This document shows positions 9,024-49,531 of a stretch of DNA of 64,000 nucleotides, in pieces. Both the position numbers and the translations under genes were made by a program. The first letter of the stretch is position 1. Every line of letters starts with the position of its first letter. Under the pieces are notes generated by a model. It had not been told where the DNA came from. It worked only from the letters and a program-made list of their open reading frames with translations, and did no database searches. Source of the DNA: Pseudomonadota bacterium (GTDB taxonomy: Bacteria; Pseudomonadota; Gammaproteobacteria; UBA12402). The stretch is from the NCBI GenBank assembly GCA_038043025.1, contig JBBTCW010000006.1, positions 26,710-90,709 of the forward strand, in the 5' to 3' direction.

Positions 9024-9036
9024 TGGGGGTGCGAAA

Positions 9037-10935: not shown

Positions 10936-11059
10936 GATTATTCAGATTATTGTAGCGATTGATATTGCTAATACAAGAAAAATATAGGGCGTTAAGGAGG
11001 GTAAGGGCCGCATTTGTTCATATTTTGAACACGTTATTATTAGTTGTTGCAAATGCTTT

Positions 11060-18476: not shown

Positions 18477-18503
18477 ATTATGTGAAAAAGGGGCTTGTTT
18501 TAT

Positions 18504-19601
18504 ATGTTTAATAATGTGTATAAAAATCGTCGCGTTTTTGTTACGGGTCACACCGGGTTTAAAGGGAGCTGGTTAACGCAGTGGTTGTTAAATTTAGGGG
18601 CGGATATAGCCGGTTATTCTGTCGATATTCCCTCGCAACCCTCTTTGTATGAATTACTTCATTTAAAGGAAAAAATACGACAAGATTATAGGGACGATAT
18701 TAGAGATATTGATCGATTATCCCAGGCGATGGCGGATTTTCAGCCGGAAATTGTTTTTCATTTGGCGGCACAGCCAATTGTGCGTACATCGTTGGCAGAA
18801 CCCAAGTTAACATTTGATGTTAATTTAGGGGGAACAGTTAATATATTAGATGCGATACGTCATATTGATTCTATTGTTGCTGCAGTATTTATTACCAGCG
18901 ATAAATGTTATGAAAATGTAGAATGGGAATATGGTTATCGTGAAACAGATGTGTTGGGAGGAAAAGATCCTTATAGTGCATCGAAGGCGTGTGCTGAAAT
19001 GGCCATTAGTGCTTATGAGCGTTCGTTCTATCAAGATTCAAATCAGGCGCTGGTGTCAGCGCGAGCGGGTAATGTTATTGGCGGAGGAGACTGGGCTAAA
19101 GATCGCATTGTGCCTGATTGCATGCGTGCGTGGGCCAAAGGAGAAACTGTCGAAGTGCGACGACCTACAGCCATTCGACCTTGGCAACATGTGCTAGATC
19201 CATTGGGCGGCTATTTGGATTTGGGTGCGCGGTTGTATGCAAAAGATAAAGATGTGATTGGCGAGGCGTTTAATTTTGGTCCGTTGTCAGAAACGTATTT
19301 AACGGTAGGCGAGTTAGTGAAAAGGTTGAGTAACGTTTGGGGCGAGTCTGCGCATTCAAAATTGTTTAATTGCGAAATGCAAAGTCGTGAGGCAGGTTTA
19401 TTGAAACTATGCTGTGATAAGGCGTTGGCGCGACTTAATTGGTCCGCCACCTTAAGTTTTTCTGAAGCGATCATGTTTACGGGAGAGTGGTATCGTGATT
19501 ATTATCGGTCTTCTAAAGAAAGCATGGTAGACATGACTAATGCTCAAATTGAAAAATATGTACATTTAGCAAAAGAGCGAGGTCGATTTTGGGCGCAATA
19601 G
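18504..19601 (+). CDS. rfbG: CDP-glucose 4,6-dehydratase
   Basis: N-terminus MFNNVYKNRRVFVTGHTGFKGSWLTQWL is diagnostic of CDP-glucose 4,6-dehydratases. YSASK YxxxK present. Start at the second ATG of the ORF. Confidence 0.8.
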   Translation: MFNNVYKNRRVFVTGHTGFKGSWLTQWLLNLGADIAGYSVDIPSQPSLYELLHLKEKIRQDYRDDIRDIDRLSQAMADFQPEIVFHLAAQPIVRTSLAEPKLTFDVNLGGTVNILDAIRHIDSIVAAVFITSDKCYENVEWEYGYRETDVLGGKDPYSASKACAEMAISAYERSFYQDSNQALVSARAGNVIGGGDWAKDRIVPDCMRAWAKGETVEVRRPTAIRPWQHVLDPLGGYLDLGARLYAKDKDVIGEAFNFGPLSETYLTVGELVKRLSNVWGESAHSKLFNCEMQSREAGLLKLCCDKALARLNWSATLSFSEAIMFTGEWYRDYYRSSKESMVDMTNAQIEKYVHLAKERGRFWAQ

Positions 19602-20059
19602 AAATAAATCAGCCCATGATCGATGGGGTCTATGTTACACCGCTTAAAAAATTTACGGATGAGCGGGGGATGGTGATGCATATATTGAGTGATATGCAAT
19701 TATCTACTGTTCGAGAAGTCTATGCATCGCTTATCAAAAGCACGGCGATCAAAGCCTGGAAGCGTCATCATAAGATGGTGCAACATTATGCCGTTCCGAT
19801 TGGTAAAATTAAATTAGTATTATTTGACAATCGTCTGAATTCTTCTACCCATAATAGGGTTCAGGAAATAGTGACAGGCATTGATTATTATGGTCTCATT
19901 CAAATTCCGCCCATGGTTTGGTATGGTTTTGAAAGTTTATCAGATGGAGATTCGTTGATTGTTAATGGCGCTTCTTTGCCACATGACCCAAATGAGGTTG
20001 ATTGCTTAGATAAAAATACTCGGGAAATTCCGTATGTATGGGGTGATAATTTAAATTGA
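19589..20059 (+). CDS. RmlC-like cupin NDP-sugar epimerase/isomerase (dTDP-4-dehydrorhamnose 3,5-epimerase family, short form)
   Basis: YVTPLKKFTDERGMVMHIL resembles the RmlC/FdtA cupin family. 156 aa, overlaps the rfbG stop. Confidence 0.5.
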   Translation: MGAIEINQPMIDGVYVTPLKKFTDERGMVMHILSDMQLSTVREVYASLIKSTAIKAWKRHHKMVQHYAVPIGKIKLVLFDNRLNSSTHNRVQEIVTGIDYYGLIQIPPMVWYGFESLSDGDSLIVNGASLPHDPNEVDCLDKNTREIPYVWGDNLN

Positions 20060-20084
20060 GAAATCTCCGCCGCTTGCGGCCGAG
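20051..20084. repeat. 34-bp dispersed hairpin repeat, copy 1 (TTAAATTGAGAAATCTCCGCCGCTTGCGGCCGAG)
   Basis: Near-identical copy at 50987-51020. Contains the imperfect hairpin CTCCGCCGC-ttg-CGGCcGAG. Begins at the stop codon of the upstream gene. Confidence 0.6.
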
Positions 20085-20195
20085 TTGTTGAAAAAATATA
20101 TCCAAGACCTAAGCTCGTAAATTTTACCGCTTTAAAATCGTGGGTTCCCGCTAGATGCTTGTCGGTGTTAATGGTTATTTGAGGGAGGGGAGTAA

Positions 20196-21884
20196 ATGAA
20201 GAACTGGTTACCTACGTTCCAGATGAACACTCGTAAGGGCGTGTTATTGCCGGTTTTTTATCTGTTTTTGGCGACATTGATATTTCATGGATTGACGCTG
20301 TTCAATAATGGAATTTTTTCGGATGGTTGGATAGGCTATATAATATTTATTGAGCATAATTTTGTTTGGATGAAAGCGGTTGACTCTGCAATGGGATTGC
20401 CCATTGACTATTATATTGATTGGGTTTCAATGTTGTTAGGATATGGGTTCATTATTAATTTGACTGGGTTTTTATCTGTTTTTATCGCTTCTTTATGTGT
20501 TTATTTGTCTTTGAGATTATTCAAGTCAATATCGTCTTCAATTGCCTTATTGGCTGCTTACGTTGTTATTATTTACCCGGGGGCGCTAACGACATTTTTT
20601 GGAGATGTGAATAATAATCATGTTTGTTATATATTGTTTTTTGTGGCGAGCTATTTTGGGCTTAAAAGTCAATCCATTGGTCAGTATAATATTTTTTCTA
20701 TCGCGCTGAGAGTTGGCAGCCTGTTGCTTTTTTTTATTAGTTTTTTCTTAAAATCTTTGCTTTGTTATTATGCTGTTTTTTTTGCGGCGCTGTATTGCTT
20801 GTCAATTCGAGATCAAAAAATCTTGTCGTTTAGAGCAAATATGAAATTTTTACTGCGAACATTAGATTTCTTTATTCTGCCGTTTTTGTTTTTTGTAATA
20901 GTGAGCGTTTTTTTTCCGGCTCATGGTGTTTATGCGGGGTATAATACGATTGCGTTTCCGGGATATTTTCTTTTTATTTATTGGCATTTACACTCGTTTT
21001 TTAATATTATTTTCTTTTCATGGGTTGTTGATTGTCTGTATGTGTTGTTTTTAATAGCGGGCGTTGTATGGGTGCTGCTTAAGCAAATACCCGTTTCGGT
21101 AATAATGAATTTAATGAAAAGACCATTAACCGATAAATGGTTTTTTCCCTACGGCGTGCTTTTGATTGTTGGTTTTGTGGCGTTGTGGATGGCCGTATTT
21201 CCCTATATTATGGTGCATATCGTGGTTGATAGTACGCGGGCAATAGGGACGTCCCATTATTCACTTTTGGTGCCCAGCGCAATGGCGATATTATTTGCAG
21301 GTATTTGGGGGTTGTGGTTTCAAAATAGTGATGGGCGGATTACTTCTGTTGGAAAAATTATATTTGTCGCATTGGCATTAGTATATGGCATTTTTTGGTA
21401 TCGAGGTTATTTACAATTGAGTGCTGAATCTGCCTTACAAAAAACCTTGATAAAACAATTTCAGAAGCATCCCGGCTGGGGAAATTATTCGATTTATTGG
21501 ATTCGGATATATTTTGACGGGGTACAACCCGTCTATAGCGGATATGAGTGGAGCGGTATCTTGAGTTATGTCTATGGCGGACATTCTCGATATGGTGAAT
21601 CATATAAATCGCGACAAACCTATAATTCAGTCTATTGGGACAAAACTTTTACGCCATTGGTTCGACAATTGTATAATATTGAAAAGTGGGATGAAAATGG
21701 CTGTCAAGCAACTATAAAAATTATTCCATTGAGCGAAGGTAAAAATCCCTATGTCATAGGAAGTTTATATTTATACTATAGGCTTTTAGATAAAAAACAA
21801 TTATCATCTTTTTTGGATCATTTGATGCAGGTAGAGGTTCGTCCCTATCAGTCTATAGAGGCAACACATTGTAAAAAAGTATAG
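20196..21884 (+). CDS. Polytopic integral membrane protein (candidate GT-C glycosyltransferase or O-antigen polymerase-like)
   Basis: 562 aa with many hydrophobic helices (FYLFLATLIFHGLTLF..., WVLLKQIPVSVIM...) and a hydrophilic C-terminal domain. No specific motif recognised. Confidence 0.4.
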   Translation: MKNWLPTFQMNTRKGVLLPVFYLFLATLIFHGLTLFNNGIFSDGWIGYIIFIEHNFVWMKAVDSAMGLPIDYYIDWVSMLLGYGFIINLTGFLSVFIASLCVYLSLRLFKSISSSIALLAAYVVIIYPGALTTFFGDVNNNHVCYILFFVASYFGLKSQSIGQYNIFSIALRVGSLLLFFISFFLKSLLCYYAVFFAALYCLSIRDQKILSFRANMKFLLRTLDFFILPFLFFVIVSVFFPAHGVYAGYNTIAFPGYFLFIYWHLHSFFNIIFFSWVVDCLYVLFLIAGVVWVLLKQIPVSVIMNLMKRPLTDKWFFPYGVLLIVGFVALWMAVFPYIMVHIVVDSTRAIGTSHYSLLVPSAMAILFAGIWGLWFQNSDGRITSVGKIIFVALALVYGIFWYRGYLQLSAESALQKTLIKQFQKHPGWGNYSIYWIRIYFDGVQPVYSGYEWSGILSYVYGGHSRYGESYKSRQTYNSVYWDKTFTPLVRQLYNIEKWDENGCQATIKIIPLSEGKNPYVIGSLYLYYRLLDKKQLSSFLDHLMQVEVRPYQSIEATHCKKV

Positions 21885-21909
21885 AGCCAGGTTATTTTGA
21901 GGTAGAATA

Positions 21910-23238
21910 ATGACTAAAGCAGATCAATTAAAACAAGAAATACTCGATAAAGTGGCGGAGTATTATCAGTATGCTTTTAATCAAGCGCCCAAGCAGAATC
22001 GCATCTCTTATGCGGGTCGTGTGTTTGATGAGCGGGAAATGTTGAATTTAGTGGACGCATCGCTAGAGTTTTGGTTGACGGAAGGGCGATACGCGCAAGC
22101 ATTTGAAAAGAAATTCTCTGGCTTTTTAAACGTTAAATATACCGCATTAGTTAATTCAGGTTCTTCGGCTAATTTGCTTGCCTTTGCAACGTTGACATCA
22201 CCTTTGTTAAAGGATCGACAAGTTTTACCAAAGGATGAAATCATTACGATTGCGGCTGGGTTTCCGACAACAGTGACCCCTATTATTCAATATGGCGCGA
22301 CACCTGTTTTTGTCGATGTTGTATTAGCCGATGGGACGTACAATGTTGATTGTGCGCAATTAGAACAGGCGTTGTCAAATAAAACTAAAGCAGTGATGTT
22401 GGCGCATACATTAGGGAATCCATTTGATTTATCAAAAGTATTGGGGTTTTGTCAGAAAAATAATCTATGGTTAATTGAAGATAATTGTGATGCGCTTGGC
22501 TCTAAATATAATGGAAAATATACAGGAACTTTTGGCGATATTGCTACTAGTAGTTTTTATCCGCCGCATCATATTACCATGGGCGAAGGCGGCGCGGTTT
22601 ATACGAATAATCCATTGCTAAATAAGATTATGCGTTCCATGCGTGATTGGGGGCGTGATTGCTATTGTCATTCAGGCAAAGATAATAGCTGTGGAAAGCG
22701 ATTTGGGCAGCAACATGGCGAGTTACCTTATGGGTATGATCATAAATACGTGTATTCACATTTTGGTTATAACCTCAAGGCGACTGATTTGCAGGCAGCG
22801 ATTGGTTGTGCGCAATTAGAAAAATTAGATGGCTTTATAAAACGGCGTCGAGAAAGTTGGCAATATTTGAGAGATGCGCTGTCGATGTTTGATAAATATT
22901 TTATTTTGCCTAATGCAACGCAGAAGAGTGAGCCAAGTTGGTTTGGTTTCTTGATGACGGTTAAAGAAAACGTCGGCTTTTCGCGCGCAGACATGGTGAC
23001 TCATTTAGAAGAACACAATATTCAAACGCGCATGTTGTTTGCAGGGAATTTAATTCGCCATCCTTGTTTTGATCAGCTGAGAGCAAAAGGAGTCGACTAT
23101 CGAGTGATCGGAAATTTAAAAAACACCGATGATATTATGAATAACACTTTCTGGATTGGCGTGTATCCGGGATTAGGTAAAGCGCAGCTGGATTATATGA
23201 TTCAAACGATTTCGCAATTTATCCAATCCATCCAATAG
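21910..23238 (+). CDS. rfbH: CDP-6-deoxy-D-xylo-4-hexulose-3-dehydrase (E1, DegT-fold PMP/[2Fe-2S] enzyme)
   Basis: 442-aa DegT-fold protein with a clustered cysteine motif WGRDCYCHSGKDNSCGKRFG, typical of the E1 iron-sulfur site. Size and N-terminus fit RfbH/DdhC. Confidence 0.7.
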   Translation: MTKADQLKQEILDKVAEYYQYAFNQAPKQNRISYAGRVFDEREMLNLVDASLEFWLTEGRYAQAFEKKFSGFLNVKYTALVNSGSSANLLAFATLTSPLLKDRQVLPKDEIITIAAGFPTTVTPIIQYGATPVFVDVVLADGTYNVDCAQLEQALSNKTKAVMLAHTLGNPFDLSKVLGFCQKNNLWLIEDNCDALGSKYNGKYTGTFGDIATSSFYPPHHITMGEGGAVYTNNPLLNKIMRSMRDWGRDCYCHSGKDNSCGKRFGQQHGELPYGYDHKYVYSHFGYNLKATDLQAAIGCAQLEKLDGFIKRRRESWQYLRDALSMFDKYFILPNATQKSEPSWFGFLMTVKENVGFSRADMVTHLEEHNIQTRMLFAGNLIRHPCFDQLRAKGVDYRVIGNLKNTDDIMNNTFWIGVYPGLGKAQLDYMIQTISQFIQSIQ

Positions 23239-24731
23239 GTCATTTTTGTTTTGCGCTGTTTATTTTCAAGTACTTTTTTATCTTGATAAAAGCTATCATC
23301 AGTATAATGCGTAGTAGATATTTCTTCGAAGATGGCGCCGTTGTTGGATTTAAAGTTATGATCTACGCCACGCTCAACGGTGACCATTTCGCCCGTGCTA
23401 ACTTCTTTGCTCGCGCCATCCAGCTCGACCGCCATATCGCCATAAAGCAGATGAAATGTTTCTTCTTTCTTTTTATGATGATGTACCGGGTGTTTTTGTC
23501 CGGGTAATAAAATAATTAATTTTTTACAGTATTCTCGGTTAATACAATTGATAATGGCGGCGCCATATTCTTCATAGCGATCAATGCCGTAATGGTGCGA
23601 GAGCTCAAGCTCCAGTTGGTTGGGCAAGGCTATTTTGCTGGCCGCCAATATTTTTGTAATTTTTTTGATGATGTTTACAACGGTTGTTCGTGAGTTTTTA
23701 ATAATGAGATCATTGTAAGTGATGGCGGTTTTTTCTGTTACATCATTTTGTAGCGTGTAATCAGTGTATTTTGAAAACTCATTAGAAACAAGTTGCGCGT
23801 CGATATTGGGTATGGCATAAAAGATATTATCGGTTGTTAATTTATCACCTTTTTTTAAGTTGGATTTTGCAAAAACCCCGCGCTTTAAACCGCGTAAATC
23901 ATTGCCTTCTTTTTCCGAGATGGCTCGCCGTTTGTGAGTGACGCCGCATATGTCATAAGTTTCTTTTGCTGCTTGTAGCCATTGCTCGATTTGTTCAGGG
24001 GTTGAAGAATAAGCGTTTAATTCGTAGCGATCTGTGGCTAAACCGACATGGCGTTCAAAAAGTCCAGCGCCTTTTGCAATGGCGATTTTAATGGGGTCGA
24101 AATTATTGGGTGCTTCATGGGTCGAAAAACCAATGGAAATTTTTGAATAACGGTTTCTGAAAAAATCAATTTGGTTGAGCTCTAAATCTTGATTGGGTGT
24201 TGGATAAGCGCCAATGCAATGCATGAGCGCAAATTCTTTTTTTCGATGTTCAAAGAATGAGACAACTTTGTCAATATCTTCAAGTGAGGCGCCGGCGGTT
24301 GATGCAATAATAGGTTTGCTGGTTTGCGCAATTTTTTCTAATAAGGGCCAGTCGGTAAAAGAGCAACTGGCGATTTTAATGATGTCAAAGTCATGTGCTT
24401 CAATTAAGTCCACAGAGTTCTCATCAAACGGCGTGCAAATGGCGGTAAATCCATTATTAACGATTTCATCTTTGAGCGATTTTAAGTCATCGCGGTCTAA
24501 ACGTGTTTCAGAAAATCGTTTAATATATTTAATATCTTGTCGATGTTTGTAGTCAGGATGAATGAAAGTATCGAGGTCGCGGTATTGTAGTTTAAAGCCA
24601 AATTTGAAGGGAAATTTATGTTTAATTTTTCCCAGTTGTTGAATAATGGCTTTTCCATGCGCAACATCACCCATATGGTTGTTGGCCATTTCGAAGATAA
24701 AGAGTTGGTGAAAAATATCTGACGATGACAT
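23202..24731 (-). CDS. NeuB-family PEP-condensing synthase fused to SAF and C-terminal cupin domains
   Basis: N-terminus IFEMANNHMGDVAHGKAIIQQL (NeuB-type); SAF-like FAKSNLKKGDKLTTDNIFYAIP; C-terminus HPVHHHKKKEETFHLLYGDMAVELDG (cupin). 3' end convergently overlaps rfbH by 37 nt. Confidence 0.55.
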   Translation of the reverse strand: MSSSDIFHQLFIFEMANNHMGDVAHGKAIIQQLGKIKHKFPFKFGFKLQYRDLDTFIHPDYKHRQDIKYIKRFSETRLDRDDLKSLKDEIVNNGFTAICTPFDENSVDLIEAHDFDIIKIASCSFTDWPLLEKIAQTSKPIIASTAGASLEDIDKVVSFFEHRKKEFALMHCIGAYPTPNQDLELNQIDFFRNRYSKISIGFSTHEAPNNFDPIKIAIAKGAGLFERHVGLATDRYELNAYSSTPEQIEQWLQAAKETYDICGVTHKRRAISEKEGNDLRGLKRGVFAKSNLKKGDKLTTDNIFYAIPNIDAQLVSNEFSKYTDYTLQNDVTEKTAITYNDLIIKNSRTTVVNIIKKITKILAASKIALPNQLELELSHHYGIDRYEEYGAAIINCINREYCKKLIILLPGQKHPVHHHKKKEETFHLLYGDMAVELDGASKEVSTGEMVTVERGVDHNFKSNNGAIFEEISTTHYTDDSFYQDKKVLENKQRKTKMTYWMDWINCEIV

Positions 24732-24910
24732 ATGAAAGATCTCTTCTGTAGTCGTATTAAAAGAGCCATTTTATATTCTTCCATCAAATAGTCAATTAAG
24801 GAGCGGTTCTGTTCGTTATTCAATTTTGTTTTTTTGTGATTGATATTTAGAACATTGTCTTGACAATGGCGCTATTTTTTTGTCCAATTTTATCTTTCTA
24901 AGGGTTTTTT

Positions 24911-26047
24911 ATGGCGATTACAGAATGCAGGGTTTGTGGTTATGGTTTTTTTGATGAGCCATTGCTGCAATATGCTAATATGCCAAAATCTGCTCAATTT
25001 TTACCCGTTGCGGCTTCTTTGAAAAATGATGAGGGTGTCGATCTAAATGTCTATCAATGCGCAGCTTGTGGTTTAGTGCAGTTGAATAGTCATCCAGTGC
25101 ATTATTACAGGGATGTCATACGTGCAGCCGCCTTTTCAGAGGAAATGAGAAAATTTCGATTGGATCAATTCGCTGGGTTTATCAAGCAGCACAATCTTGT
25201 TCAAAAAAAAGTCATCGAGATTGGGTGTGGGCGAGGGGAGTATTTATCACTTATTCGTGATTGTCATGTGGATGCTTATGGAATAGAAAATTCTGCAGCG
25301 TCAGTGGCATATTGCATTAAACATAAACTTAATGTTTTTCAAGACTTTATTGAGAGCAATGAACAGAAGGTTGCGCATGCTCCATTTGATGCGTTTTTGA
25401 TGTTAAGTTTTTTAGAACATCTGCCTCAGCCCAATGCGATACTTCAAGGAATATGCCGAAATTTGGCTGATGATGCCGTCGGGATTGTGGAAGTGCCAAA
25501 TTTTGATATGATTATTAAAAAGAAGCTTTTTTCTGAATTTATCAGTGATCACCTGTTTTATTTTACGCGAGATACGTTAATTGCGATCCTACAGTTAAAT
25601 GGATTTGACGTATTGGAATGTAAAAATGTGTGGTATGATTACATCCTTTCCGCAGTTGTCAAAAAACGAACACGTATGAGTTTGTCAGTGTTTTATAAAT
25701 CGCAAGAACAGTTGCAACAACGGGTTAGTGATTATCTGGATGGCTTTGGCGATCAAAAGGTAGCCATCTGGGGGGCGGGGCATCAGGCATTAGCGATGAT
25801 GTCTTTGATGCGCTTAGAAGATAGAATCAAATATGTGGTTGATTCTGCGCCGTTTAAGCAGGGCAAATATACCCCTGCCACGCATATCCCTATTGTGTCG
25901 CCTGAAATGTTGAATGTCGATCCTGTTGATGCGGTGATTGTAATGGCAGCCAGTTATTCAAATGAAGTTGTGCAAACATTGCGAAAAAATTTCAATAAAA
26001 ACTTAAATGTTGTTGTGTTAAAAGAGCATGATTTAGTAACAGCGTGA
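24911..26047 (+). CDS. NDP-hexose C-methyltransferase (TylC3-like; Zn-ribbon + SAM MTase + C-methyltransferase C-terminal domain)
   Basis: N-terminal Cys pairs CRVCG...CAACGLVQL typical of the TylC3 family zinc-binding domain. SAM motif VIEIGCGRGEY. C-terminal Rossmann-like IWGAGHQALAMMS. Confidence 0.65.
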   Translation: MAITECRVCGYGFFDEPLLQYANMPKSAQFLPVAASLKNDEGVDLNVYQCAACGLVQLNSHPVHYYRDVIRAAAFSEEMRKFRLDQFAGFIKQHNLVQKKVIEIGCGRGEYLSLIRDCHVDAYGIENSAASVAYCIKHKLNVFQDFIESNEQKVAHAPFDAFLMLSFLEHLPQPNAILQGICRNLADDAVGIVEVPNFDMIIKKKLFSEFISDHLFYFTRDTLIAILQLNGFDVLECKNVWYDYILSAVVKKRTRMSLSVFYKSQEQLQQRVSDYLDGFGDQKVAIWGAGHQALAMMSLMRLEDRIKYVVDSAPFKQGKYTPATHIPIVSPEMLNVDPVDAVIVMAASYSNEVVQTLRKNFNKNLNVVVLKEHDLVTA

Positions 26048-26103
26048 GATTTTTTAAAGAGAGAAATTTTCATTGCGTGTGGTTGAGTTGTTGAAAAATT
26101 AAT

Positions 26104-27216
26104 GTGAGGCATAAAGTGTTAGATCAAAATTTACGTCAGAGTGAAATAGAAAAGCGTAATCAATTACAACATAACAAGCCGCGTGTTTATGAGAAAATTA
26201 CACGGTTTAAAGATAAAGTTGAACGAGGAGAAAGTATTGCTATTATTCAATTTCAATATAATTATCAATGCAATTTTCGTTGTGAGCATTGTTCAATAAA
26301 AGGGTTTCAAGGCAAACAGGACAAGAGAAAATTTACGATAGAAGATGTAAAAAAGCTTTCATATGAGGCGGATGAAATGGGTTTGGCGCATTTGGTGATT
26401 ACGGGGGGGGAGCCGTTAATTTTTAAAGATTATGATGCATTGATAGCGGCTATTGATCCCAGCAAATTTTATATTAGTTCTGATACAAATGGTTGGTTTT
26501 TAGATGCTGAAAGAGCGCGTCATCTTAAAGAGATTGGCGTGGATAAAATTCAATTGAGTCTTGATAGCCTTGATGCGGATTCTCACGATGCGTTTAGAGG
26601 AGCGCCCGGATCACATGCGCGCGCGTTACGTGCGATTGATGCAGCGCAGAATGCTGGCTTAAATATTATTGTACAAACGGTTGTCACAAAGACCCGATTG
26701 CATACGGATGAATTTATTCGTTTTTTAGAGTTTTTAAATGCTAAAAATGTTGGCGTATTTGTGACTTATGCCAAACCTGTAGGCGCGTGGGAAGGGCATT
26801 TTGAAGAATTGGTTGATCTTGATGACATGGCTTATATGCGAGAGCTCGAGAAAAAACATAATGTATTTACGCATTTAACGCCGTCTTATGGATTGGATTT
26901 AGGTTGCTTAGCAGTTAAGCGAATGATTTCTGTTACACAATACGGTGATGTTTTGCCTTGCCCATATATTCATACATCGATAGGGAACGTATTTCAAGAG
27001 TCATTACAAAAGATTATTAATCGAGGGTTAAGTATTAAATATTTTGGCGAATATGTGGAGACTTGTTTGATCGCAGAAGATAGAAAATTTATCCATGATT
27101 ATGTGGTGAAAAAAATATATGGCAAGCCATTACCTGTTCCATATGATGAGGTGTTTGATGCGGAGAGCGATTATATAAAAGATAAGGTTGATGCGGCTTG
27201 GGTAGAGGTAGAGTAG
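26104..27216 (+). CDS. Radical SAM protein with SPASM/twitch-like C-terminal domain
   Basis: CNFRCEHC (CX3CX2C) and GGEPL motifs. C-terminal GDVLPCPY is SPASM-like. Apparent GTG start. Confidence 0.65.
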   Translation: MRHKVLDQNLRQSEIEKRNQLQHNKPRVYEKITRFKDKVERGESIAIIQFQYNYQCNFRCEHCSIKGFQGKQDKRKFTIEDVKKLSYEADEMGLAHLVITGGEPLIFKDYDALIAAIDPSKFYISSDTNGWFLDAERARHLKEIGVDKIQLSLDSLDADSHDAFRGAPGSHARALRAIDAAQNAGLNIIVQTVVTKTRLHTDEFIRFLEFLNAKNVGVFVTYAKPVGAWEGHFEELVDLDDMAYMRELEKKHNVFTHLTPSYGLDLGCLAVKRMISVTQYGDVLPCPYIHTSIGNVFQESLQKIINRGLSIKYFGEYVETCLIAEDRKFIHDYVVKKIYGKPLPVPYDEVFDAESDYIKDKVDAAWVEVE

Positions 27217-28286: not shown

Positions 28287-28290
28287 GTCG

Positions 28291-29496: not shown

Positions 29497-29514
29497 GATA
29501 GAGGGTTATATAAA

Positions 29515-31227: not shown

Positions 31228-31269
31228 AAAGTAATTTAGTTTTTAAAAATTTATAATTAGGAGGGAATC

Positions 31270-32820: not shown

Positions 32821-32830
32821 CGGAGCGGGT

Positions 32831-33772
32831 ATGTCAAAAAAATTAATTAGCATTATGAGTAATTGTTATAACGAAGAAGAAAATGTTGATGAATTCTATC
32901 AGCAAATTAAAGAAATCATGATGTCCTATCAAGATAAATATGAGTATGATCATCTTTTTATGGATAATTCTTCAACGGATGGAACGGTAAAAAAAATTAA
33001 AGCTATTATTGAAAAAGATAAACATGTGCGACTCATCGTAAATACACGAAATTTTGGACAGATCCGTTCCCCTTATTATGGGATATTGCAAGTAAAGGGA
33101 GATGCTGTTGTGAGCTTGGCAACCGACTTTCAAGATCCTCCGTATTTGATTAGGGAATTTATAGCGAAGTGGGAAGAGGGATATAAAAATGTTATTGGGG
33201 TGAAACATAAAAGCAAAGAAAATAAAATAATGTTTTTTATTAGAAAGTTTTTCTATCGCTTGATAGCGAAAATATCCGAAGTAGATCTGGTTGAAAACTT
33301 TACTGGTTTTGGTCTTTATGACAAACAGTTTATTGATGTTTTACGCGGTCTTGATGATCCTTATCCTTATTTTCGTGGATTGATTGCTGAATTAGGGTTT
33401 AGTCGTGCTGAAATATCATATGCTCAGCCGAAACGAGAGAGAGGGACATCGACTAATAATTGGTATAGTTTATATGATCTTGCTATGCTGGGTTTTGTGA
33501 ATCATTCGAAGTTGCCTCTGCGTTTGTCGAGTTTTTTAGGATTTTTTGTATCATTTGTTTGTGTTGTTATTGCAATAGTTTATTTTATTTATAAGCTGCT
33601 TTTCTGGTCTTCTATTCAGATGGGTATTGCACCACTTATTATTGGTATGTTTTTCTTTGGTGGCGTGCAATTATTTTTTCTTGGTATTATTGGTGAATAT
33701 GTGGGGGCAATATTTACGCAGGTAAAAAATCGTCCGTTGGTTATTGAAAGGGAGCGGGTTAATTTTGATTAA
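32831..33772 (+). CDS. Polyprenyl-phosphate glycosyltransferase (GT2, GtrB/ArnC/DPM1-like) with C-terminal TM helices
   Basis: ISIMSNCYNEEENV...DNSSTDGT GT2 signature. Two C-terminal hydrophobic helices, typical of GtrB-like enzymes. Confidence 0.65.
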   Translation: MSKKLISIMSNCYNEEENVDEFYQQIKEIMMSYQDKYEYDHLFMDNSSTDGTVKKIKAIIEKDKHVRLIVNTRNFGQIRSPYYGILQVKGDAVVSLATDFQDPPYLIREFIAKWEEGYKNVIGVKHKSKENKIMFFIRKFFYRLIAKISEVDLVENFTGFGLYDKQFIDVLRGLDDPYPYFRGLIAELGFSRAEISYAQPKRERGTSTNNWYSLYDLAMLGFVNHSKLPLRLSSFLGFFVSFVCVVIAIVYFIYKLLFWSSIQMGIAPLIIGMFFFGGVQLFFLGIIGEYVGAIFTQVKNRPLVIERERVNFD

Positions 33773-34250
33773 TACAATAAAAAAACATATTTTTAACGAA
33801 CGATTTTCTAAATTCTTTTTAATCGGCATTTGGAACGCGGCATTTGGTGTCGGTGTTTTTTCCTTATTATATTATTGGTTTCATCAATATGTTAATTATA
33901 TGATTTTAGTGATCATCACTAATATTTTAGCCATTACTAATGCATATATCTGTTATAAGTTAGTTGTTTTTAAGACGAAGGGCAACTATGTTAAGGAGTA
34001 TTTAAGGTTTTATATCGTGTACGGTTTTGCATTTGCTGTGAGTTTATTGCTTTTCCCGCTTTTTATGGAAGTGGTCTTTCCTTTTTTGGCAGCGCATATG
34101 CCAAATTATTATGGTATCTTTAATTACAAGGCTTATTTGTCGCAACTTGTCATTACTAGTATCACCATGTTTGTCAGTTATTTTGGGCATCTTAAGGTTT
34201 CTTTTCGTGAGGAAGCCTCTTCAGAGGTGTTGCCCGATGGAGAAGGTTGA
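33744..34250 (+). CDS. GtrA-family small membrane protein
   Basis: 168 aa with about 4 TM helices (FLIGIWNAAFGVGVF...). Positioned after a GtrB-like gene. Confidence 0.55.
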   Translation: MKGSGLILINTIKKHIFNERFSKFFLIGIWNAAFGVGVFSLLYYWFHQYVNYMILVIITNILAITNAYICYKLVVFKTKGNYVKEYLRFYIVYGFAFAVSLLLFPLFMEVVFPFLAAHMPNYYGIFNYKAYLSQLVITSITMFVSYFGHLKVSFREEASSEVLPDGEG

Positions 34251-36055
34251 AAGTTATGATTAAACTATCGGATTATGTTGCAAAATTTATTGTAGATAAA
34301 AAAATAAAAAATTTGTTTTTATTGCCGGGTGGCGGATGTATGCATTTAGTTGATTCATTTGGTTGTCGTTCGGAGATTAAAAAGATTTGTTGTCTTCACG
34401 AGCAGGCGGCAGTCATCGCGGCAGATGCATGTAGTCAATACACCAATGATTTTGGCGTTGCGCTGGTGACAACAGGCCCGGGCGCGACAAATGCGATTAC
34501 AGGTGTTGCAGGGGCTTGGATCGATTCGGTTCCGATGATGGTGATTTCAGGCCAAGTGAAACGGCAAGACATGATGGGTCAGAGCAGATTGCGACAAAAG
34601 GGCGTTCAAGAAGTCGATATTATTACGATGGTGAAATCAATTACTAAATATGCTGTGACCGTGATGGATCCACAGCGCATTCGATATCATTTAGAAAAAG
34701 CCTATTGTTTAGCGCGCACGGGTTGTTCGGGTCCTGTTTGGATTGATATTCCATTGGATGTGCAGGGTGCAATGATCGAGGAGGATGCGTTAGAGCAGTT
34801 TATTCCTGCGCAAATCACTCGGCCGGATTTATCAGATCAAATAGATCATGTAGTCGATTTATTAAATCAGGCTAAACGACCGGTTCTTTTGGTTGGGAAT
34901 GGTGTGCGTTTGTCACATGGCATGTCAGAATTTTATGAATTAATTGACGCATTGAACATTCCTGTGTTAACCACTTGGAAATCAATCGATTTTTTATCGG
35001 AAGACCACCCGTTATTTTTTGGTCGCCCCGGGTCGATTGGACAACGTTATGCGAATTTGATTCAGCAAAATAGTGATTTATTCATAACCATTGGTGCGCG
35101 TCTTGATTTGGCGCAGATTGGTTATAATTATGGATGGGTCGCGCGTGAAGCGAGAAAAGTAGTGGTCGATGTTGATCAAGCGCAAATTGATAAAATGAGT
35201 GACATGCATATTGATGTGAGTGTTTGCGCGGACGCAAAGAATTTTATTAATCATCTGCTGGTAAAACAAAATGTAATCAATCGGTCGGATAGAAAAAAAT
35301 GGTTTGATCAATGCAAGATATGGAAGCAAAAATATCCCGTCATATTGTCAGCTTATTATGATGAGAAAAATTATGTTAATACCTATGTGTTGGTTGATAT
35401 CTTATCTGAACTATTGACAGAAGATGATGTGTTGGTGCCCGGAAGTTCAGGGAGTTGTAGTGAAATATTATCACAAGCATTTAAGGTGAAAAAAGGACAG
35501 CGAATTTTTAATAATCCGGGTTTAGGATCAATGGGATATGGATTGCCGGCGAGCATGGGTGCATGTGTTGCGAGCGGTAAGCGGACGATTACCGTGATTG
35601 GAGATGGTGGTTTGCAGCATAATATTCAAGAGTTGGAGACGATCCATCGATTGCAATTGCCGTTGAAAATATTTATTTTAAATAATAATGGTTATGCGTC
35701 GATTCGAAATATGCAGCGCAATTATTTTGATAAAAATTATATGTGCTGTGATCCATCGTCTGGCTTAACGGTGCCAAATACTTGTGATGTTGCATCGGCG
35801 TATAAAATCGCAACAACCCGAATTTATAATCATGAAAACATGAAAGAAAAAATAATGGCGGTTTTGCAAAGCAAGGGACCGATGATATGCGATGTGATGG
35901 TGAATCCTGATTTAATTACAGCGCCGCGTTTGTCTTCTGAAGTTAATAAAGATGGAAAAATCACATCGAAGCCGCTCGAAGATTTATGGCCATTTTTGGA
36001 TCGAGATGAATTTTTAGCGAATATGTTGGTGCCGGTGCTTGAGGCAAGTGAATGA
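34247..36055 (+). CDS. Thiamine-diphosphate-dependent enzyme of the acetolactate synthase/YerE-like family
   Basis: 602 aa. ThDP motif GDGGLQHNIQELETI...NNNGY. N-terminal TPP_enzyme_N-like TTGPGATNAITG. Confidence 0.7.
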   Translation: MKVMIKLSDYVAKFIVDKKIKNLFLLPGGGCMHLVDSFGCRSEIKKICCLHEQAAVIAADACSQYTNDFGVALVTTGPGATNAITGVAGAWIDSVPMMVISGQVKRQDMMGQSRLRQKGVQEVDIITMVKSITKYAVTVMDPQRIRYHLEKAYCLARTGCSGPVWIDIPLDVQGAMIEEDALEQFIPAQITRPDLSDQIDHVVDLLNQAKRPVLLVGNGVRLSHGMSEFYELIDALNIPVLTTWKSIDFLSEDHPLFFGRPGSIGQRYANLIQQNSDLFITIGARLDLAQIGYNYGWVAREARKVVVDVDQAQIDKMSDMHIDVSVCADAKNFINHLLVKQNVINRSDRKKWFDQCKIWKQKYPVILSAYYDEKNYVNTYVLVDILSELLTEDDVLVPGSSGSCSEILSQAFKVKKGQRIFNNPGLGSMGYGLPASMGACVASGKRTITVIGDGGLQHNIQELETIHRLQLPLKIFILNNNGYASIRNMQRNYFDKNYMCCDPSSGLTVPNTCDVASAYKIATTRIYNHENMKEKIMAVLQSKGPMICDVMVNPDLITAPRLSSEVNKDGKITSKPLEDLWPFLDRDEFLANMLVPVLEASE

Positions 36056-36927
36056 AGATATTGATTACAGGGGGCGCTGGTTTTATTGCAAAAAGTTTGT
36101 TTGATGAGCTTAATCAATTGTACGATGTAATTCTTTGTTCTCGAACAGATCTTGATTTGCTGGAGCCACAAGCCGTTTTTGAATATATTAAACGCTTTCA
36201 GTTTGATGTTGTTATTCATGCGGCGACTTATGATGCCGCGCCAACCTGTTCGATAAAAAATCCAAGCAAAGTATTAGAAAATAATTTGAAAATGTTTTTT
36301 AATATTGTGCGTTGTCAGAATTATTTTGGGAGATTAATTTATTTTGGCTCAGGAGCTGAATATGATCGTAATTATTGGGTGCCTAAAATGAAGGAAAGTT
36401 ATTTCGATCGACATATCCCGACTGATCAATATGGGTTTTCAAAATATATTATGACTAAATATATGCAGCACAGTAAAAATATTTATAATCTCAGGTTGTT
36501 TGGTGTGTTTGGGAAATACGATGATTGGCGCTATCGTTTTATTCCCAATGCTTGTTGCAGAGCTTTATTGGGTCGGCCTATTGTGATCCGTCAAAATAAG
36601 ATGTTTGATTTTATGTATATTGATGATTTAGTGGAAATAGTAAAATGGATTATATTGGCTCAGCCAATAGAAAATATATATAATGTTTGTTCAGGTCGGG
36701 CGCTTGAACTAAAGGCAATAGCCAAAACAATTGTAGAGGTGTCTGGGAAGCAGTCAGAAATCATTTGTTTGGAGTCGCAATTAGCCAGCGAATATAGTGG
36801 AGATAACGCTTTGCTTTTAAGTGAGCTAAAGGATTTTAGATTTTATGGGATAGAACAGGCCATTCAGAATTTGTATGATTGGTATGCAAGTAATGTATCT
36901 TTAATTTGTGAGGATCAATTGTGTTAA
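36052..36927 (+). CDS. NAD-dependent epimerase/dehydratase/reductase (SDR family)
   Basis: ITGGAGFIAKSL Rossmann motif. 291 aa. YxxxK-like YIMTK. Confidence 0.55.
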   Translation: MKILITGGAGFIAKSLFDELNQLYDVILCSRTDLDLLEPQAVFEYIKRFQFDVVIHAATYDAAPTCSIKNPSKVLENNLKMFFNIVRCQNYFGRLIYFGSGAEYDRNYWVPKMKESYFDRHIPTDQYGFSKYIMTKYMQHSKNIYNLRLFGVFGKYDDWRYRFIPNACCRALLGRPIVIRQNKMFDFMYIDDLVEIVKWIILAQPIENIYNVCSGRALELKAIAKTIVEVSGKQSEIICLESQLASEYSGDNALLLSELKDFRFYGIEQAIQNLYDWYASNVSLICEDQLC

Positions 36928-37439
36928 ATAATATTACGATACATGATGCCATTGCGTTTTTGGAACATCAAGTTGTGAATTCGTCCAAAGGGTTGCCGCA
37001 GGAATTATTTTTCTTTGTGACTCGAATGACGCCTATGGTAAATGTTGATTTGTTGGTGAGAGATGAAACAGGGCGAATTTTATTGGCGTGGCGCGATGAC
37101 CAATTTGCTGGAGCAGGTTGGCATGTTCCCGGAGGCATTATTCGGTTTAAAGAAACGATGATGACGCGTTTGTTAAAGATAGCTGACACTGAAATTGGTG
37201 CTGTTGTTGAACTAGATGCAGCGCCCATTGCCATTAATGAAGTTATTTGTGAACATGACACGCGAGGACATTTTATTTCTGTTTTATATCGAGGATATCT
37301 ATCGAGTAAATTTGAACCTAAAAATATGGGTTTGAAAGATACGGATCCTGGTTATCTGGCGTGGCATTCAGTATGTCCTAATAATCTTGTGACGGTGCAT
37401 GAGATGTATAGAATTTATTTGAACAATGAAAAATGTTAG
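36921..37439 (+). CDS. Nudix-hydrolase-like protein (degenerate Nudix box)
   Basis: GGIIRFKETMMTRLLKIADTEIG approximates the Gx5Ex7REUxEExGU Nudix box. Size about 170 aa, similar to GDP-sugar hydrolases. Confidence 0.4.
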   Translation: MLNNITIHDAIAFLEHQVVNSSKGLPQELFFFVTRMTPMVNVDLLVRDETGRILLAWRDDQFAGAGWHVPGGIIRFKETMMTRLLKIADTEIGAVVELDAAPIAINEVICEHDTRGHFISVLYRGYLSSKFEPKNMGLKDTDPGYLAWHSVCPNNLVTVHEMYRIYLNNEKC

Positions 37440-41807: not shown

Positions 41808-42722
41808 ATGTTGATACCTGTCATATTGGCCGGTGGTATAGGCAAGCGTTTATGGCCTTTATCCACGCCGAAACGACCCAAGCAATTTCTGCCGCTGTTG
41901 AGTGACAAAAGCTTATTACAAGAAACGATGGCTCGTATTGCGCATTATCCAGAGATGTCTTTGCCAATGGTGATAGGCAGTTTGTCACATCGCGCTTTGT
42001 TGAACGAGCAATTAATAGGTGCTCAAGCGACTATAATTTTGGAACCATTTGGACGCAATACGGCGCCAGCGATTGCGATTGCTGCTTTAAGAGCGATGGA
42101 AAGTGGGCAAGATCCTATTTTATTTGTATTGCCTTCTGATCATGTGATTCAGAATCCAGATATATTTTATAAAGCGATAGCGATTGCTTGTGCGCACGCA
42201 GAAAAAAATAAATTAGTAACGTTTGGCATTGTGCCTCACGCACCAGAAATAGGTTACGGATATATTGAAGCGGGGGAGCGTTGTGATGATGCCTATGTCA
42301 TTAAACGATTTGTAGAAAAACCCCCGAAACAATTAGCCGAACAATATTTGGCGCAGGGCGGATATTATTGGAACAGTGGGATGTTTGTCTTTCGGGCGTC
42401 ATCGATTTTACAGGCGATTGAAACATATGCGCCAAACATTTACGCGGCTTGTCAGGAGACGTTAAAAAATAGTCGAAAGGATAAGAGGTATATTTATCTC
42501 AATGAAATACAATTTGCGCAATGCCCAAAAGAATCCATCGATTGTGCGGTCATGGAGAAAACAAAGGATGCAGTGGTGGTGCCGTTAGATGCCGGTTGGT
42601 CGGATGTGGGTTCGTGGCATGTGTTATGGTCGTTGATGCGTAAAAATCAACATGGCTACATGAAGCTTGCTACTCTATTTTTGAGAAATATCATGAGTCG
42701 ATTAAAAAAGGATCCTCAATGA
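41808..42722 (+). CDS. Mannose-1-phosphate guanylyltransferase-like nucleotidyltransferase (no C-terminal cupin/PMI domain)
   Basis: N-terminus MLIPVILAGGIGKRLWPLS is classic for ManC/GMP-type enzymes. 304 aa. Confidence 0.65.
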   Translation: MLIPVILAGGIGKRLWPLSTPKRPKQFLPLLSDKSLLQETMARIAHYPEMSLPMVIGSLSHRALLNEQLIGAQATIILEPFGRNTAPAIAIAALRAMESGQDPILFVLPSDHVIQNPDIFYKAIAIACAHAEKNKLVTFGIVPHAPEIGYGYIEAGERCDDAYVIKRFVEKPPKQLAEQYLAQGGYYWNSGMFVFRASSILQAIETYAPNIYAACQETLKNSRKDKRYIYLNEIQFAQCPKESIDCAVMEKTKDAVVVPLDAGWSDVGSWHVLWSLMRKNQHGYMKLATLFLRNIMSRLKKDPQ

Positions 42723-43504
42723 AAACGGTTATTTTATGTGGAGGGCAAGGCACGAGAATTCGCGGAGTTGTGGAGAATATTCCTAAGCCAATGATCCCGG
42801 TGGGTGCTTTCCCCATTCTTTGGCATATCATGAAATACTATGCGTGCTGGCGGCATAAAGAATTTGTGCTGTGTTTAGGATATCAGGCTGATGTAATTAA
42901 GGATTTTTTTCGTAATTACAAAGCACATATGTGTGATTATACTGTTTTTTTAGGGGATTCGAAGCGAGTTGAATATCATGGGAAGCATGATGAAGCGGAT
43001 TGGCAGGTGACGTTGGCAGAAACGGGGTTGAACGCAATGACGGGTGTTCGTATTAAGCGGATTAAAAAATATATCGCGGAGGACGAACATTTTATGCTGA
43101 CCTATGGGGATGGGGTGGGTGATGTTGATTTAGATAAGTTACTCGCGTTTCATTTATCTCACGGAAAAATTTTAACCATGACCGGCGTGCATCCCCCGGG
43201 TCGTTTTGGTGAGTTAATGAGTGACGCCAAGGGATTGGTCACTGAATTTAACGAAAAACCGCAATCCACGGGTGGTTGTATCAATGGCGGTTTCTTTGTC
43301 TGTCGTCGTGAAATATTTGATTATTTAAGTGACGATGAATCTTTAGTGTTTGAGCAAGAACCGATAAAAAAATTAGTCGCTGATCGGCAGATGATGTTGT
43401 ATGAACATGGTGGTTTTTGGCAGCCGATGGATACCTATCGCGAATATTCTTTACTAAATGGATTGTATGATGCGGGTAAAGCGCCTTGGGTCATTTGGAA
43501 ATGA
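42719..43504 (+). CDS. rfbF: Glucose-1-phosphate cytidylyltransferase
   Basis: MKTVILCGGQGTRIRGVVENIPKPMIPVG is diagnostic of RfbF/DdhA. 261 aa. Confidence 0.8.
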   Translation: MKTVILCGGQGTRIRGVVENIPKPMIPVGAFPILWHIMKYYACWRHKEFVLCLGYQADVIKDFFRNYKAHMCDYTVFLGDSKRVEYHGKHDEADWQVTLAETGLNAMTGVRIKRIKKYIAEDEHFMLTYGDGVGDVDLDKLLAFHLSHGKILTMTGVHPPGRFGELMSDAKGLVTEFNEKPQSTGGCINGGFFVCRREIFDYLSDDESLVFEQEPIKKLVADRQMMLYEHGGFWQPMDTYREYSLLNGLYDAGKAPWVIWK

Positions 43505-49452: not shown

Positions 49453-49531
49453 GCGAAAGTCGCTATTAATTGCCTGATTAAAGGTGGCTTTGCCTGGTGA
49501 ATTATCCCAAATAGATAGAGGCAGAAAGATA

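Follow-up and report, generated by a model that had tools for sequence, protein, structure and literature searches.

Yersiniose, erwiniose, caryophyllose and gastriose belong to the acyl-branched sugars, a rare kind of surface sugar with immunological relevance. To our knowledge, no source of their side-chain donors other than pyruvate aldolases has been traced to date. In the scheme of Steitz et al. (2022), acids proposed to come from a neighboring pyruvate aldolase are ligated to cytidine diphosphate (CDP)-4-keto-3,6-dideoxyglucose to give erwiniose, caryophyllose and gastriose (PMC9306805). The aldolases ErwI (P. atrosepticum), MMAR_2331 (M. marinum) and MygI (M. gastri) supply a gamma-hydroxy-alpha-keto acid to a YerE-like, thiamine diphosphate (ThDP)-dependent enzyme, which branches the CDP-sugar (PMC9306805). 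The characterized long-branch YerE-like enzyme ErwE rejects pyruvate; its donors are hydroxylated keto acids (PMC9306805). In the open-access literature, no report linking NeuB-like or cupin-fused synthases to branched-sugar clusters was found; outside that coverage lies the in-silico survey of more than 200 YerE-like clusters by Krug et al. (2024, Angew. Chem. e202403535), as cited in PMC12247030. Here we describe a gene for a fused NeuB-SAF-cupin protein, referred to as NeuB-cupin, in a 64,000-nucleotide stretch of DNA (the window) from an uncultured groundwater metagenome-assembled genome (MAG) of the Pseudomonadota (GCA_038043025.1, contig JBBTCW010000006.1, positions 26,710 to 90,709).

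The KdsD-KdsA-KdsC module for 3-deoxy-D-manno-octulosonic acid (Kdo) consists of an isomerase, a phosphoenolpyruvate (PEP)-dependent synthase and a phosphatase of the haloacid dehalogenase (HAD) type. The NeuB-cupin system follows the same three-step logic, with isomerase, PEP-condensing enzyme and HAD phosphatase encoded together. The parts, however, are non-homologous or distant, a cupin in place of a SIS isomerase and a NeuB-type enzyme in place of a member of the 3-deoxy-D-arabino-heptulosonate 7-phosphate (DAHP)/KDO8P synthase family, and the product apparently goes to a ThDP carboligase rather than to a cytidine monophosphate (CMP)-transferase.

The NeuB-cupin protein probably, if only just, has two enzymatic activities and provides an acyl-branched 3,6-dideoxyhexose with its side chain. 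It is proposed that a PEP-dependent synthase fused to an isomerase here takes the role of the pyruvate aldolase. The two kinds of enzyme share this proposed role and a similar gene neighborhood, but their folds are unrelated, and the aldolases catalyze a reversible aldol addition of pyruvate whereas NeuB-cupin would couple an irreversible PEP condensation to an isomerase.

The NeuB-cupin fusion

The open reading frame (ORF) runs from ATG to stop and encodes 509 amino acids (Table 1). A cluster look-up gave the NCBI entry MEK6730696.1, from a Pseudomonadota MAG, which carries the label "N-acetylneuraminate synthase family protein." In Pfam, residues 47-264 match NeuB (PF03102; 138.5 bits, cut-off 22.1) and residues 406-465 match Cupin_2 (39.6 bits, cut-off 27.2), and an AlphaFold2 (AF2) model of the entire protein has a mean predicted local distance difference test (pLDDT) score of 90.6. 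The 120 best database homologues are approximately 490-537 amino acids long, 59-75% identical, and all contain both NeuB and Cupin_2.

For comparison of loci, 80 were taken from a genome scan and three further ones from metagenomes. In these 83 fetched loci the NeuB-cupin gene is full length and in one frame, each matched as a single high-scoring segment pair. The carriers include Nitrospirota, Omnitrophota, Patescibacteria, Planctomycetota, Desulfobacterota and Chloroflexota, as well as archaea of the genus Methanoperedens, a Lachnospiraceae MAG and the cultured Mycolicibacterium rhodesiae DSM 44223. When the C-terminal 170 amino acids were used as the query against the whole library, 139 clusters (50% identity) were recovered at E<=1e-30, many of them with members of 485-515 amino acids. 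Since the homologues are full length, with both domains, across many phyla, the fusion is genuine and under constraint. The family is widespread and annotated only generically. A frameshift or a mis-predicted extension as the origin of the cupin region is ruled out by the full-length, single-frame homologues.

In three metagenomic ORFs the fusion extends further. One of 723 amino acids joins NeuB, cupin and HAD_2 (P0285), a partial one joins NeuB, cupin and an NT5C-like HAD domain (P0257), and another partial one joins a cupin to a ThDP enzyme (P0254). Most of the apparent stand-alone versions of the cupin proved to be fragments of genes, on contigs that are either short or long-read and riddled with indels (L089), and were set aside. 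One true stand-alone relative was found in an unrelated context: a 220-residue protein, 53% identical, at positions 7001-7663 of locus L088 (GCA_900198705.1), which adjoins an amylomaltase gene and lies outside any glycan cluster. The fused cupin may derive from a free-living isomerase lineage that this protein represents.

The cupin domain

The AF2 model of the C-terminal domain (165 amino acids) has a pLDDT of 90.7. In a Foldseek search with it, ranks 1-10 are all D-lyxose isomerases, with template modelling (TM) scores of 0.55-0.67 and approximately 166-203 columns aligned. The top matches are 2Y0O (B. subtilis YdaE), 3KMH/3MPB (E. coli Z5688) and 7NZO-Q (Thermofilum TsLI), and L-ribose isomerases come next. 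The 171-183-residue chains of 2Y0O and 7NZO-7NZQ align over 166-179 columns, essentially their full length. The overall D-lyxose isomerase fold, a cupin barrel with an N-terminal helix, is matched along the whole domain (TM 0.66). The cupin and YdaE have in common the motifs YG, YCxK, PGQxxPxHxH, KxETFxxxYG, HxF and ExSxT, a likeness that exceeds generic cupin motifs. A generic cupin, or a cupin of the nucleotide-sugar epimerase type, is ruled out by the fold ranking and by these motif-level matches.

The active site of TsLI comprises K62, H75, H77, K86, E88, H143, E156 and D163 (PMC8378251). Aligned through 2Y0O, its Mn ligands H75, H77, E88 and H143 correspond to H417, H419, E424 and H458 of NeuB-cupin, all invariant in the family, and K62, K86 and E156 to the invariant K404, K422 and E470. 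D163 aligns to T477, with an invariant aspartate, D479, two positions off. Seven of the eight TsLI active-site residues are thus matched by family-invariant residues. Compared with the D-lyxose/D-mannose isomerases (2Y0O, 7NZO-7NZQ, 3KMH), the domain shares the full-length fold, the H-x-H...K-x-E...H motif and the lysine and glutamate of the sugar pocket; it differs in having only about 19% identity, in being fused to a synthase rather than free-standing, and in the displaced equivalent of D163. Pfam Lyx_isomer (PF07385) scored 20.1 against a cut-off of 20.8 and NF051472 scored 15.8 against 350, both below threshold.

With a D-lyxose isomerase fold and invariant active-site residues, the cupin domain very probably functions as a Mn-dependent aldose-ketose isomerase that acts on free sugars, as judged from the model and the alignments. 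The original prediction had suggested a bifunctional synthase/isomerase and had proposed looking for metal-binding histidines in a predicted structure of the cupin. H417, H419 and H458 lie on Mn-ligand positions, and the conservation of metal ligands and substrate residues on a D-lyxose isomerase fold fits the suggestion.

The NeuB-like domain

The N-terminal half has the TIM barrel of the nonulosonic acid (NulO) synthases NeuB, LegI and PseI and, to judge from alignments, their SAF/AFP-like domain. Its nearest relative of known structure is 3G8R, a Chromobacterium violaceum "probable spore coat polysaccharide biosynthesis protein E" from structural genomics: phmmer against the PDB gave E=2.7e-118 across residues 8-339, with 53% identity. 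3G8R is the only solved structure of the sub-clade. It has 350 amino acids and, in contrast to NeuB-cupin, no cupin; we know of no reported function for it. Foldseek likewise ranks 3G8R first (TM 0.87), followed by NeuB (1XUU) and PseI (8H2C); NeuB, PseI and SpsE structures are 20-24% identical to this half. Pfam SAF was not reported at E<=0.01, but residues approximately 273-340 still align to the C-terminal SAF/AFP-like domain of NeuB. The alignment to TIGR03569 extends to position 327 of the 329 in the model, and Foldseek aligned 344 columns of the 348-residue 1XUU and 335 of 3G8R.

The curated NeuB model TIGR03569 gave 136.3 bits against an equivalog cut-off of 399.65, and the curated PseI model TIGR03586 gave 128.5 bits against 340.25. 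The residues E25, K53, Q55, T110, K129 and S132 of N. meningitidis NeuB (NmNeuB) are found as the family-conserved E14, K47, Q49, T100, K119 and S122, and S154, Y186, S213, H215, E234 and H236 as S144, Y176, S203, H205, E226 and H228. The pair of metal-binding histidines (H205, H228) and the PEP-binding K47, Q49, T100, K119, S122, S144 and S203 are invariant in 44 sequences. Three other NmNeuB residues are replaced, E134 by S124, D247 by N239 and R314 by I307, and the replacements are themselves invariant across the NeuB-cupin family. 3G8R has serine for E134 and asparagine for D247, as NeuB-cupin does, and phenylalanine at the position of R314.

In a large phylogenetic study, the conserved catalytic set of the NulO synthases was E25/E134/E234 plus R314 (PMC8208679). 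The set is incomplete in NeuB-cupin, E14 and E226 being kept, E134 and R314 replaced. Identity as a canonical NeuB, LegI or PseI is ruled out by the equivalog cut-offs and by the loss of E134 and R314. Compared with N. meningitidis NeuB (1XUU/1XUZ) and C. jejuni PseI (8H2C), NeuB-cupin retains the metal histidines, the PEP-binding lysines, serines and threonines, and the equivalents of E25 and E234; it differs by its extra C-terminal isomerase-like domain and by having CDP-sugar and ThDP enzymes as neighbors, not genes of a NulO pathway. The NeuB half thus appears, from its sequence, to have retained the PEP and metal chemistry and to have had its acceptor pocket rebuilt.

D-lyxose isomerases yield D-lyxose and D-mannose, both of which share the C2-C4 configuration of N-acetylmannosamine (ManNAc), the substrate of NeuB. 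The loss of E134, D247 and R314, which are tied to ManNAc and to catalysis, fits an acceptor without an N-acetyl group and would suit non-acetylated acceptors of the D-lyxose or D-mannose type.

These results bear out the original prediction that the cupin is genuinely fused to a NeuB-like protein, with no frameshift between the domains, and that the enzyme is non-canonical, with its missed equivalog cut-offs and extra cupin. On the catalytic residues, proposed as a test of the NeuB-like region, the outcome was mixed: those for metal and PEP are present, and E134, D247 and R314 of NmNeuB are replaced. The gene had also been called the second NeuB of the stretch, correctly so, as a canonical NeuB (289.6 bits) is encoded at 9013-10110. 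That gene is part of a legionaminic-acid-type block (5634-14689), separate from the NeuB-cupin cassette. The block comprises a 4,6-dehydratase, a DegT aminotransferase, a hydrolysing 2-epimerase, the canonical NeuB, a CBS-nucleotidyltransferase, a GFO/IDH/MocA oxidoreductase, a CTP_transf_3 cytidylyltransferase and a short-chain dehydrogenase/reductase (SDR).

Gene neighborhood in the window and in related loci

The window encodes RfbF, RfbG and RfbH of the pathway to CDP-3,6-dideoxy-4-keto-hexose, as well as a ThDP-dependent carboligase (Table 1). The best PDB matches of the carboligase are 8RPH (402 bits) and 5AHK, which we take to be YerE of P. protegens; true acetohydroxyacid synthases (AHAS) rank lower, and the score against the AHAS equivalog is 372, with a cut-off of 538. 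Structure 8RPH is JanthE (PMC12188165). With JanthE as its best PDB match and a score under the AHAS cut-off, the window enzyme is YerE-like by sequence.

Neighbors were counted by tblastn of the window proteins against the 83 loci, of which 48 have at least 6 kb on both sides of the gene. In these 48 an orthologue of the window ThDP enzyme was found in 46, an RfbH homologue in 42, RfbF in 39, RfbG in 37, the radical SAM/SPASM enzyme in 31, the NUDIX hydrolase in 27 and the C-methyltransferase in 19. RfbH is usually directly upstream of NeuB-cupin and co-directional with it. The usual order on one strand is RfbF-RfbG-RfbH-NeuBcupin-(ORF of about 190 amino acids)-ThDP enzyme. The small ORF, present in 59 of the 83 loci, is a HAD-type phosphatase with a WDVDDVLN motif and a Pfam match to NT5C; in three loci, that of M. 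rhodesiae among them, it is replaced by a HAD_2-type phosphatase. Given the co-directional RfbH and the YerE-like ThDP enzyme in related loci, a role in branched-sugar synthesis is suggested, and the context points to an acyl-branched 3,6-dideoxyhexose, not to a sialic-acid-like sugar.

M. rhodesiae DSM 44223 has a compact cassette in a cultured organism (locus L087, 5754-16257). RfbG and RfbH are on one strand; RfbF, a family 2 glycosyltransferase (GT2), NeuB-cupin (9989-11506), the ThDP enzyme, the HAD_2 phosphatase and two methyltransferases are on the other. The branched sugar of M. gastri reportedly has a di-O-methylated C7 side chain, of which the two methyltransferases are reminiscent.

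As a member of the NeuB superfamily with its PEP and metal residues intact, the protein might be a stand-alone synthase of an ulosonic acid resembling Kdo or 2-keto-3-deoxynononic acid (KDN), whose nucleotide-activated product forms a separate residue of the same polysaccharide, so that co-location would reflect nothing but a shared glycan. The triad of isomerase, synthase and HAD phosphatase does mirror the Kdo (KdsD/KdsA/KdsC) and KDN pathways, and the window contains a CTP_transf_3 gene (13194-13895). This gene, however, belongs to the legionaminic-acid-type block beside the canonical NeuB, and near NeuB-cupin a CMP-sugar synthetase (CTP_transf_3) homologue was found in only 1 of the 83 loci by a single tblastn query, which divergent enzymes could escape. 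The place of the gene in most loci, wedged between those for RfbH and the ThDP enzyme, and the existence of a cupin-ThDP single ORF also speak against a separate residue, and we consider this explanation unlikely.

Table 1. Positions of the NeuB-cupin gene, its domains and the associated pathway genes in the window.
Feature	Position	Strand	Basis or remark
NeuB-SAF-cupin fusion gene, 509 aa	23202..24731	-	ORF, Pfam NeuB + Cupin_2, homologues, AF2 model
N-terminal NeuB-like module, residues 8-339, TIM barrel + SAF/AFP-like domain	23715..24710	-	phmmer, Foldseek
SAF-like part, residues ~273-340	23712-23915	-	TIGR03569 alignment, Foldseek
C-terminal D-lyxose/D-mannose-isomerase-like cupin, residues 345-509	23205..23699	-	AF2 model, Foldseek, 2Y0O alignment
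Pfam Cupin_2, residues 406-465	23337-23516	-	Pfam
3'-3' overlap of NeuB-cupin and rfbH, 37 nt	23202..23238	both	
Divergent intergenic region, NeuB-cupin/C-methyltransferase genes, 179 nt	24732..24910		promoter-like sites: minus 24795-24768, plus 24840-24867
RfbG, CDP-glucose 4,6-dehydratase	18495..19601	+	TIGR02622, 465.6 bits vs. cut-off 278
rfbH, CDP-6-deoxy-4-hexulose 3-dehydrase, E1 type	21910..23238	+	NF011936, 721.9 bits vs. cut-off 423
Sugar C-methyltransferase	24911-26047	+	Pfam
Radical SAM/SPASM enzyme	26104-27216	+	Pfam
GT2 (313 aa) + GtrA pair, directly upstream of ThDP gene	32831..34250	+	Pfam; same pair in related loci
YerE-like ThDP-dependent carboligase, 602 aa	34247..36055	+	TPP_enzyme_N/M/C domains
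SDR (Pfam Epimerase), candidate YerF-like side-chain ketoreductase	36052..36927	+	overlaps end of ThDP gene; role inferred from position and scheme in PMC9306805
NUDIX hydrolase	36921..37439	+	Pfam
RfbF, glucose-1-phosphate cytidylyltransferase	42719..43504	+	TIGR02623, 305.4 bits vs. cut-off 300.25

A proposed pathway

Domain assignments, conserved residues and gene associations come from the computations above; which substrates are used, in what order the steps run and that the product acts as donor we infer in the following scheme. The C-terminal Mn-cupin would first convert a free ketose, such as D-xylulose or D-fructose, to an aldose of manno configuration. The NeuB-like domain would then condense this aldose irreversibly with PEP to a 3-deoxy-2-ulosonic acid of eight or nine carbons (C8/C9), Kdo- or KDN-like. 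Instead of being activated with CMP, the acid would be taken as donor by the YerE-like ThDP enzyme, which would decarboxylate it and add the acyl unit to C-4 of the CDP-3,6-dideoxy-4-keto-hexose made by RfbF, RfbG and RfbH. Ketoreduction by the candidate SDR, tailoring by methyltransferases, radical SAM enzymes and aminotransferases, and transfer to a lipid carrier by GT2/GtrA would follow. Where a HAD phosphatase is encoded, its step would precede or follow that of the synthase. A donor role is suggested because a NeuB-type reaction yields exactly the kind of 4-hydroxy-2-oxo (3-deoxy-2-ulosonic) acid in the scheme of Steitz et al. (PMC9306805).

The protein could also serve the same pathway at another step, by extending with PEP an aldehyde or keto group on the branched CDP-sugar, or by making a keto acid that the AHAS-like ThDP enzyme would use as acceptor, pyruvate being the donor. 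Gene association leaves the order of steps open to either, AHAS-type enzymes naturally take 2-keto acids as acceptors, and the loss of R314 and E134 indicates a remodelled acceptor site. The intact free-sugar-binding residues of the D-lyxose-isomerase-like domain argue instead for a small ketose or aldose over a CDP-sugar, and ErwE rejects pyruvate in favor of hydroxylated keto acids; we rate such a step as slightly less likely even than a stand-alone synthase.

Several observations weigh against a supply of side chains by NeuB-cupin. In the window the ThDP gene is 9.5 kb away from the NeuB-cupin gene, which is inverted, and there is no HAD phosphatase. Two archaeal loci (L007, L008) and the locus of the closest relative (P0001) are without the ThDP enzyme in the available sequence. 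Gene association indicates a shared pathway and does not fix the order of its steps. The substrates are guessed from distant isomerase relatives, with about 19% identity. The partial metagenomic ORFs P0254 and P0257 are possible sequencing artefacts.

Domain searches revealed no pyruvate aldolase domain in any scanned ORF of the window. The search for a HAD phosphatase, with a profile of 40-odd neighbors and with the M. rhodesiae HAD_2 protein as a query, found none in the window. The scanned ORFs of the window included no E3/AscD-type partner (ferredoxin-NADH reductase) of the E1-type RfbH; the gene for this reductase must lie elsewhere, or the reductase must have been replaced.

The convergent overlap with rfbH

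In the window the NeuB-cupin and rfbH genes converge and overlap by 37 nucleotides at their 3' ends. RfbH aligns to positions 5-438 of a 440-position model, and the C-terminus of NeuB-cupin aligns to the end of homologues of about 509 amino acids, with W503 invariant. Since both proteins have the normal length of their families, over-extension of the ORFs is not the source of the overlap. Four independent groundwater metagenome assemblies all show this gene pair with its 37-nucleotide overlap. The arrangement was found in none of the 83 related loci, although a neighboring gene of the DegT/RfbH type is on the opposite strand in two of them; the gene of the closest relative (P0001, 75% identity) is divergent from its neighbors and has no rfbH beside it.

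The skew at third codon positions (GC3 skew) of the NeuB-cupin gene, in terms of the plus strand, is +0.476, and that of its neighbors is 0.29-0.50. As its GC3 skew has equilibrated to this strand, the gene has long resided in its present orientation. An assembly artefact as the source of the inversion and overlap is ruled out by the four agreeing assemblies and by the equilibrated skew. Throughout the window (e.g., 18495-36055) the plus-strand GC skew is approximately +0.2 overall and the GC3 skew +0.3 to +0.5; the skew tracks the DNA strand, not the coding direction: in each of the five minus-strand genes that were checked, the coding strand has the inverse skew. No terminator-like site, unusual RNA structure or Rfam match was found at the overlap or in the 179-nucleotide divergent intergenic region. 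The promoter-like sites in the latter (Table 1) do not exceed the count expected from shuffled sequence and are only suggestive.

The original prediction had noted the 37-nucleotide overlap, which is confirmed, and had raised antisense interference between the two genes, which is possible but unsupported. If the overlap were mainly regulatory, rfbH and the NeuB-cupin gene would interfere with each other through antisense RNA or at transcription. The overlap itself is genuine and recurs between assemblies, the two genes have no terminator between them, and a promoter-like site lies upstream of the minus-strand gene. Convergence is nevertheless confined to this lineage, the genes being mostly co-directional in the related loci; promoter-like sites are no commoner than in shuffled sequence, no structured RNA or Rfam match was detected, and both products are predicted to be needed together. 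A mainly regulatory role is accordingly improbable. The view of rfbH as an antagonistic neighbor has to be given up, as in 80+ related loci it is a co-directional partner, together with the YerE-like ThDP enzyme.

The NeuB-cupin gene is alone on the minus strand within a long run of plus-strand genes and lacks its usual HAD neighbor, and might be taken for a remnant, decaying or without function, that a rearrangement left on the wrong strand. Its 509-residue ORF is intact, however, with all family-invariant catalytic residues present and an identical sequence in several assemblies, and the equilibrated GC3 skew (+0.476) indicates long residence under selection; decay is very improbable. The convergent overlap is a lineage-specific, old rearrangement with no evident function.

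Other features of the window

Genes for the SDR, the NUDIX hydrolase and two aminotransferases follow the ThDP gene. Upstream of the GT2/GtrA pair are genes for methyltransferases and several radical SAM enzymes. The pair probably transfers the finished sugar to a polyprenyl phosphate carrier. The two functions, separate here, are combined at 56921-58009 in a 362-residue GT2-GtrA transmembrane fusion. Radical SAM enzymes are unusually dense at 28258-32820 and 55455-56921; one has a C-methyltransferase-like N-terminus and three are B12-binding. This density suggests several methylations at unactivated sugar carbons.

At the window edge (36-2229) there are split transketolase-like genes (Transketolase_N 36-551, Transket_pyr 535-1035), followed by a radical SAM gene. 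The split transketolase is a second, different ThDP system in the glycan locus, which could provide a two-carbon branch. A mannose-1-phosphate guanylyltransferase (41808-42722) matches positions 1-286 of the 467-position GMP/PMI model and is without the C-terminal phosphomannose-isomerase cupin. A Schlafen AlbA_2/HATPase_c_4 protein (49484-50950) and a STAND-type ATPase (ATPase_2/AAA_16; 60005-61432) are present among the glycan genes; these are possible regulators or defence genes.

Variation within the population was seen at two genes. A 562-residue multi-pass membrane protein with no Pfam match (20196-21884) is split into parts of 256-259 and 170 amino acids in two assemblies (loci L001, L003). 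In the same two loci a 355-residue radical SAM gene stands in place of the B12-radical SAM gene at 31270-32820, which is strain-level variation in the same population.

Significance

We infer from sequence comparisons that a NeuB-superfamily synthase has been recruited, with its own isomerase, into the scheme for acyl-branched sugars. A broader form of the proposal is held more tentatively and falls somewhat short of likely. NeuB-cupin, often with the HAD phosphatase, would constitute a Kdo-like three-step module whose product is not activated with CMP but grafted by the YerE-like ThDP enzyme onto CDP-3,6-dideoxy-4-keto-hexose, giving C13-C15 "higher-carbon" branched sugars of the gastriose/caryophyllose type. 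Such sugars would then be spread much more widely than the few examples known today, with carriers among bacteria of the candidate phyla radiation, Omnitrophota, Nitrospirota, Methanoperedens and mycobacteria, and the module would represent the first PEP-dependent route to the acyl donor.

If the proposal is correct, the side-chain donor would be formed by a different kind of enzyme, an irreversible PEP-dependent synthase fused to its own isomerase. The NeuB-cupin gene would mark branched-sugar clusters across dozens of mostly uncultured phyla and would provide a simple genomic marker for them. The synthase, forming a polyhydroxy keto acid, and the ThDP carboligase, taking up that acid, would also be a new pair of biocatalysts for long chiral tertiary alcohols. 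Thousands of entries annotated as "N-acetylneuraminate synthase family protein," a label that would be inflating the counts of sialic-acid-like biosynthesis in environmental genomes, would receive a corrected annotation. The cultured carrier M. rhodesiae DSM 44223 makes the idea directly testable.

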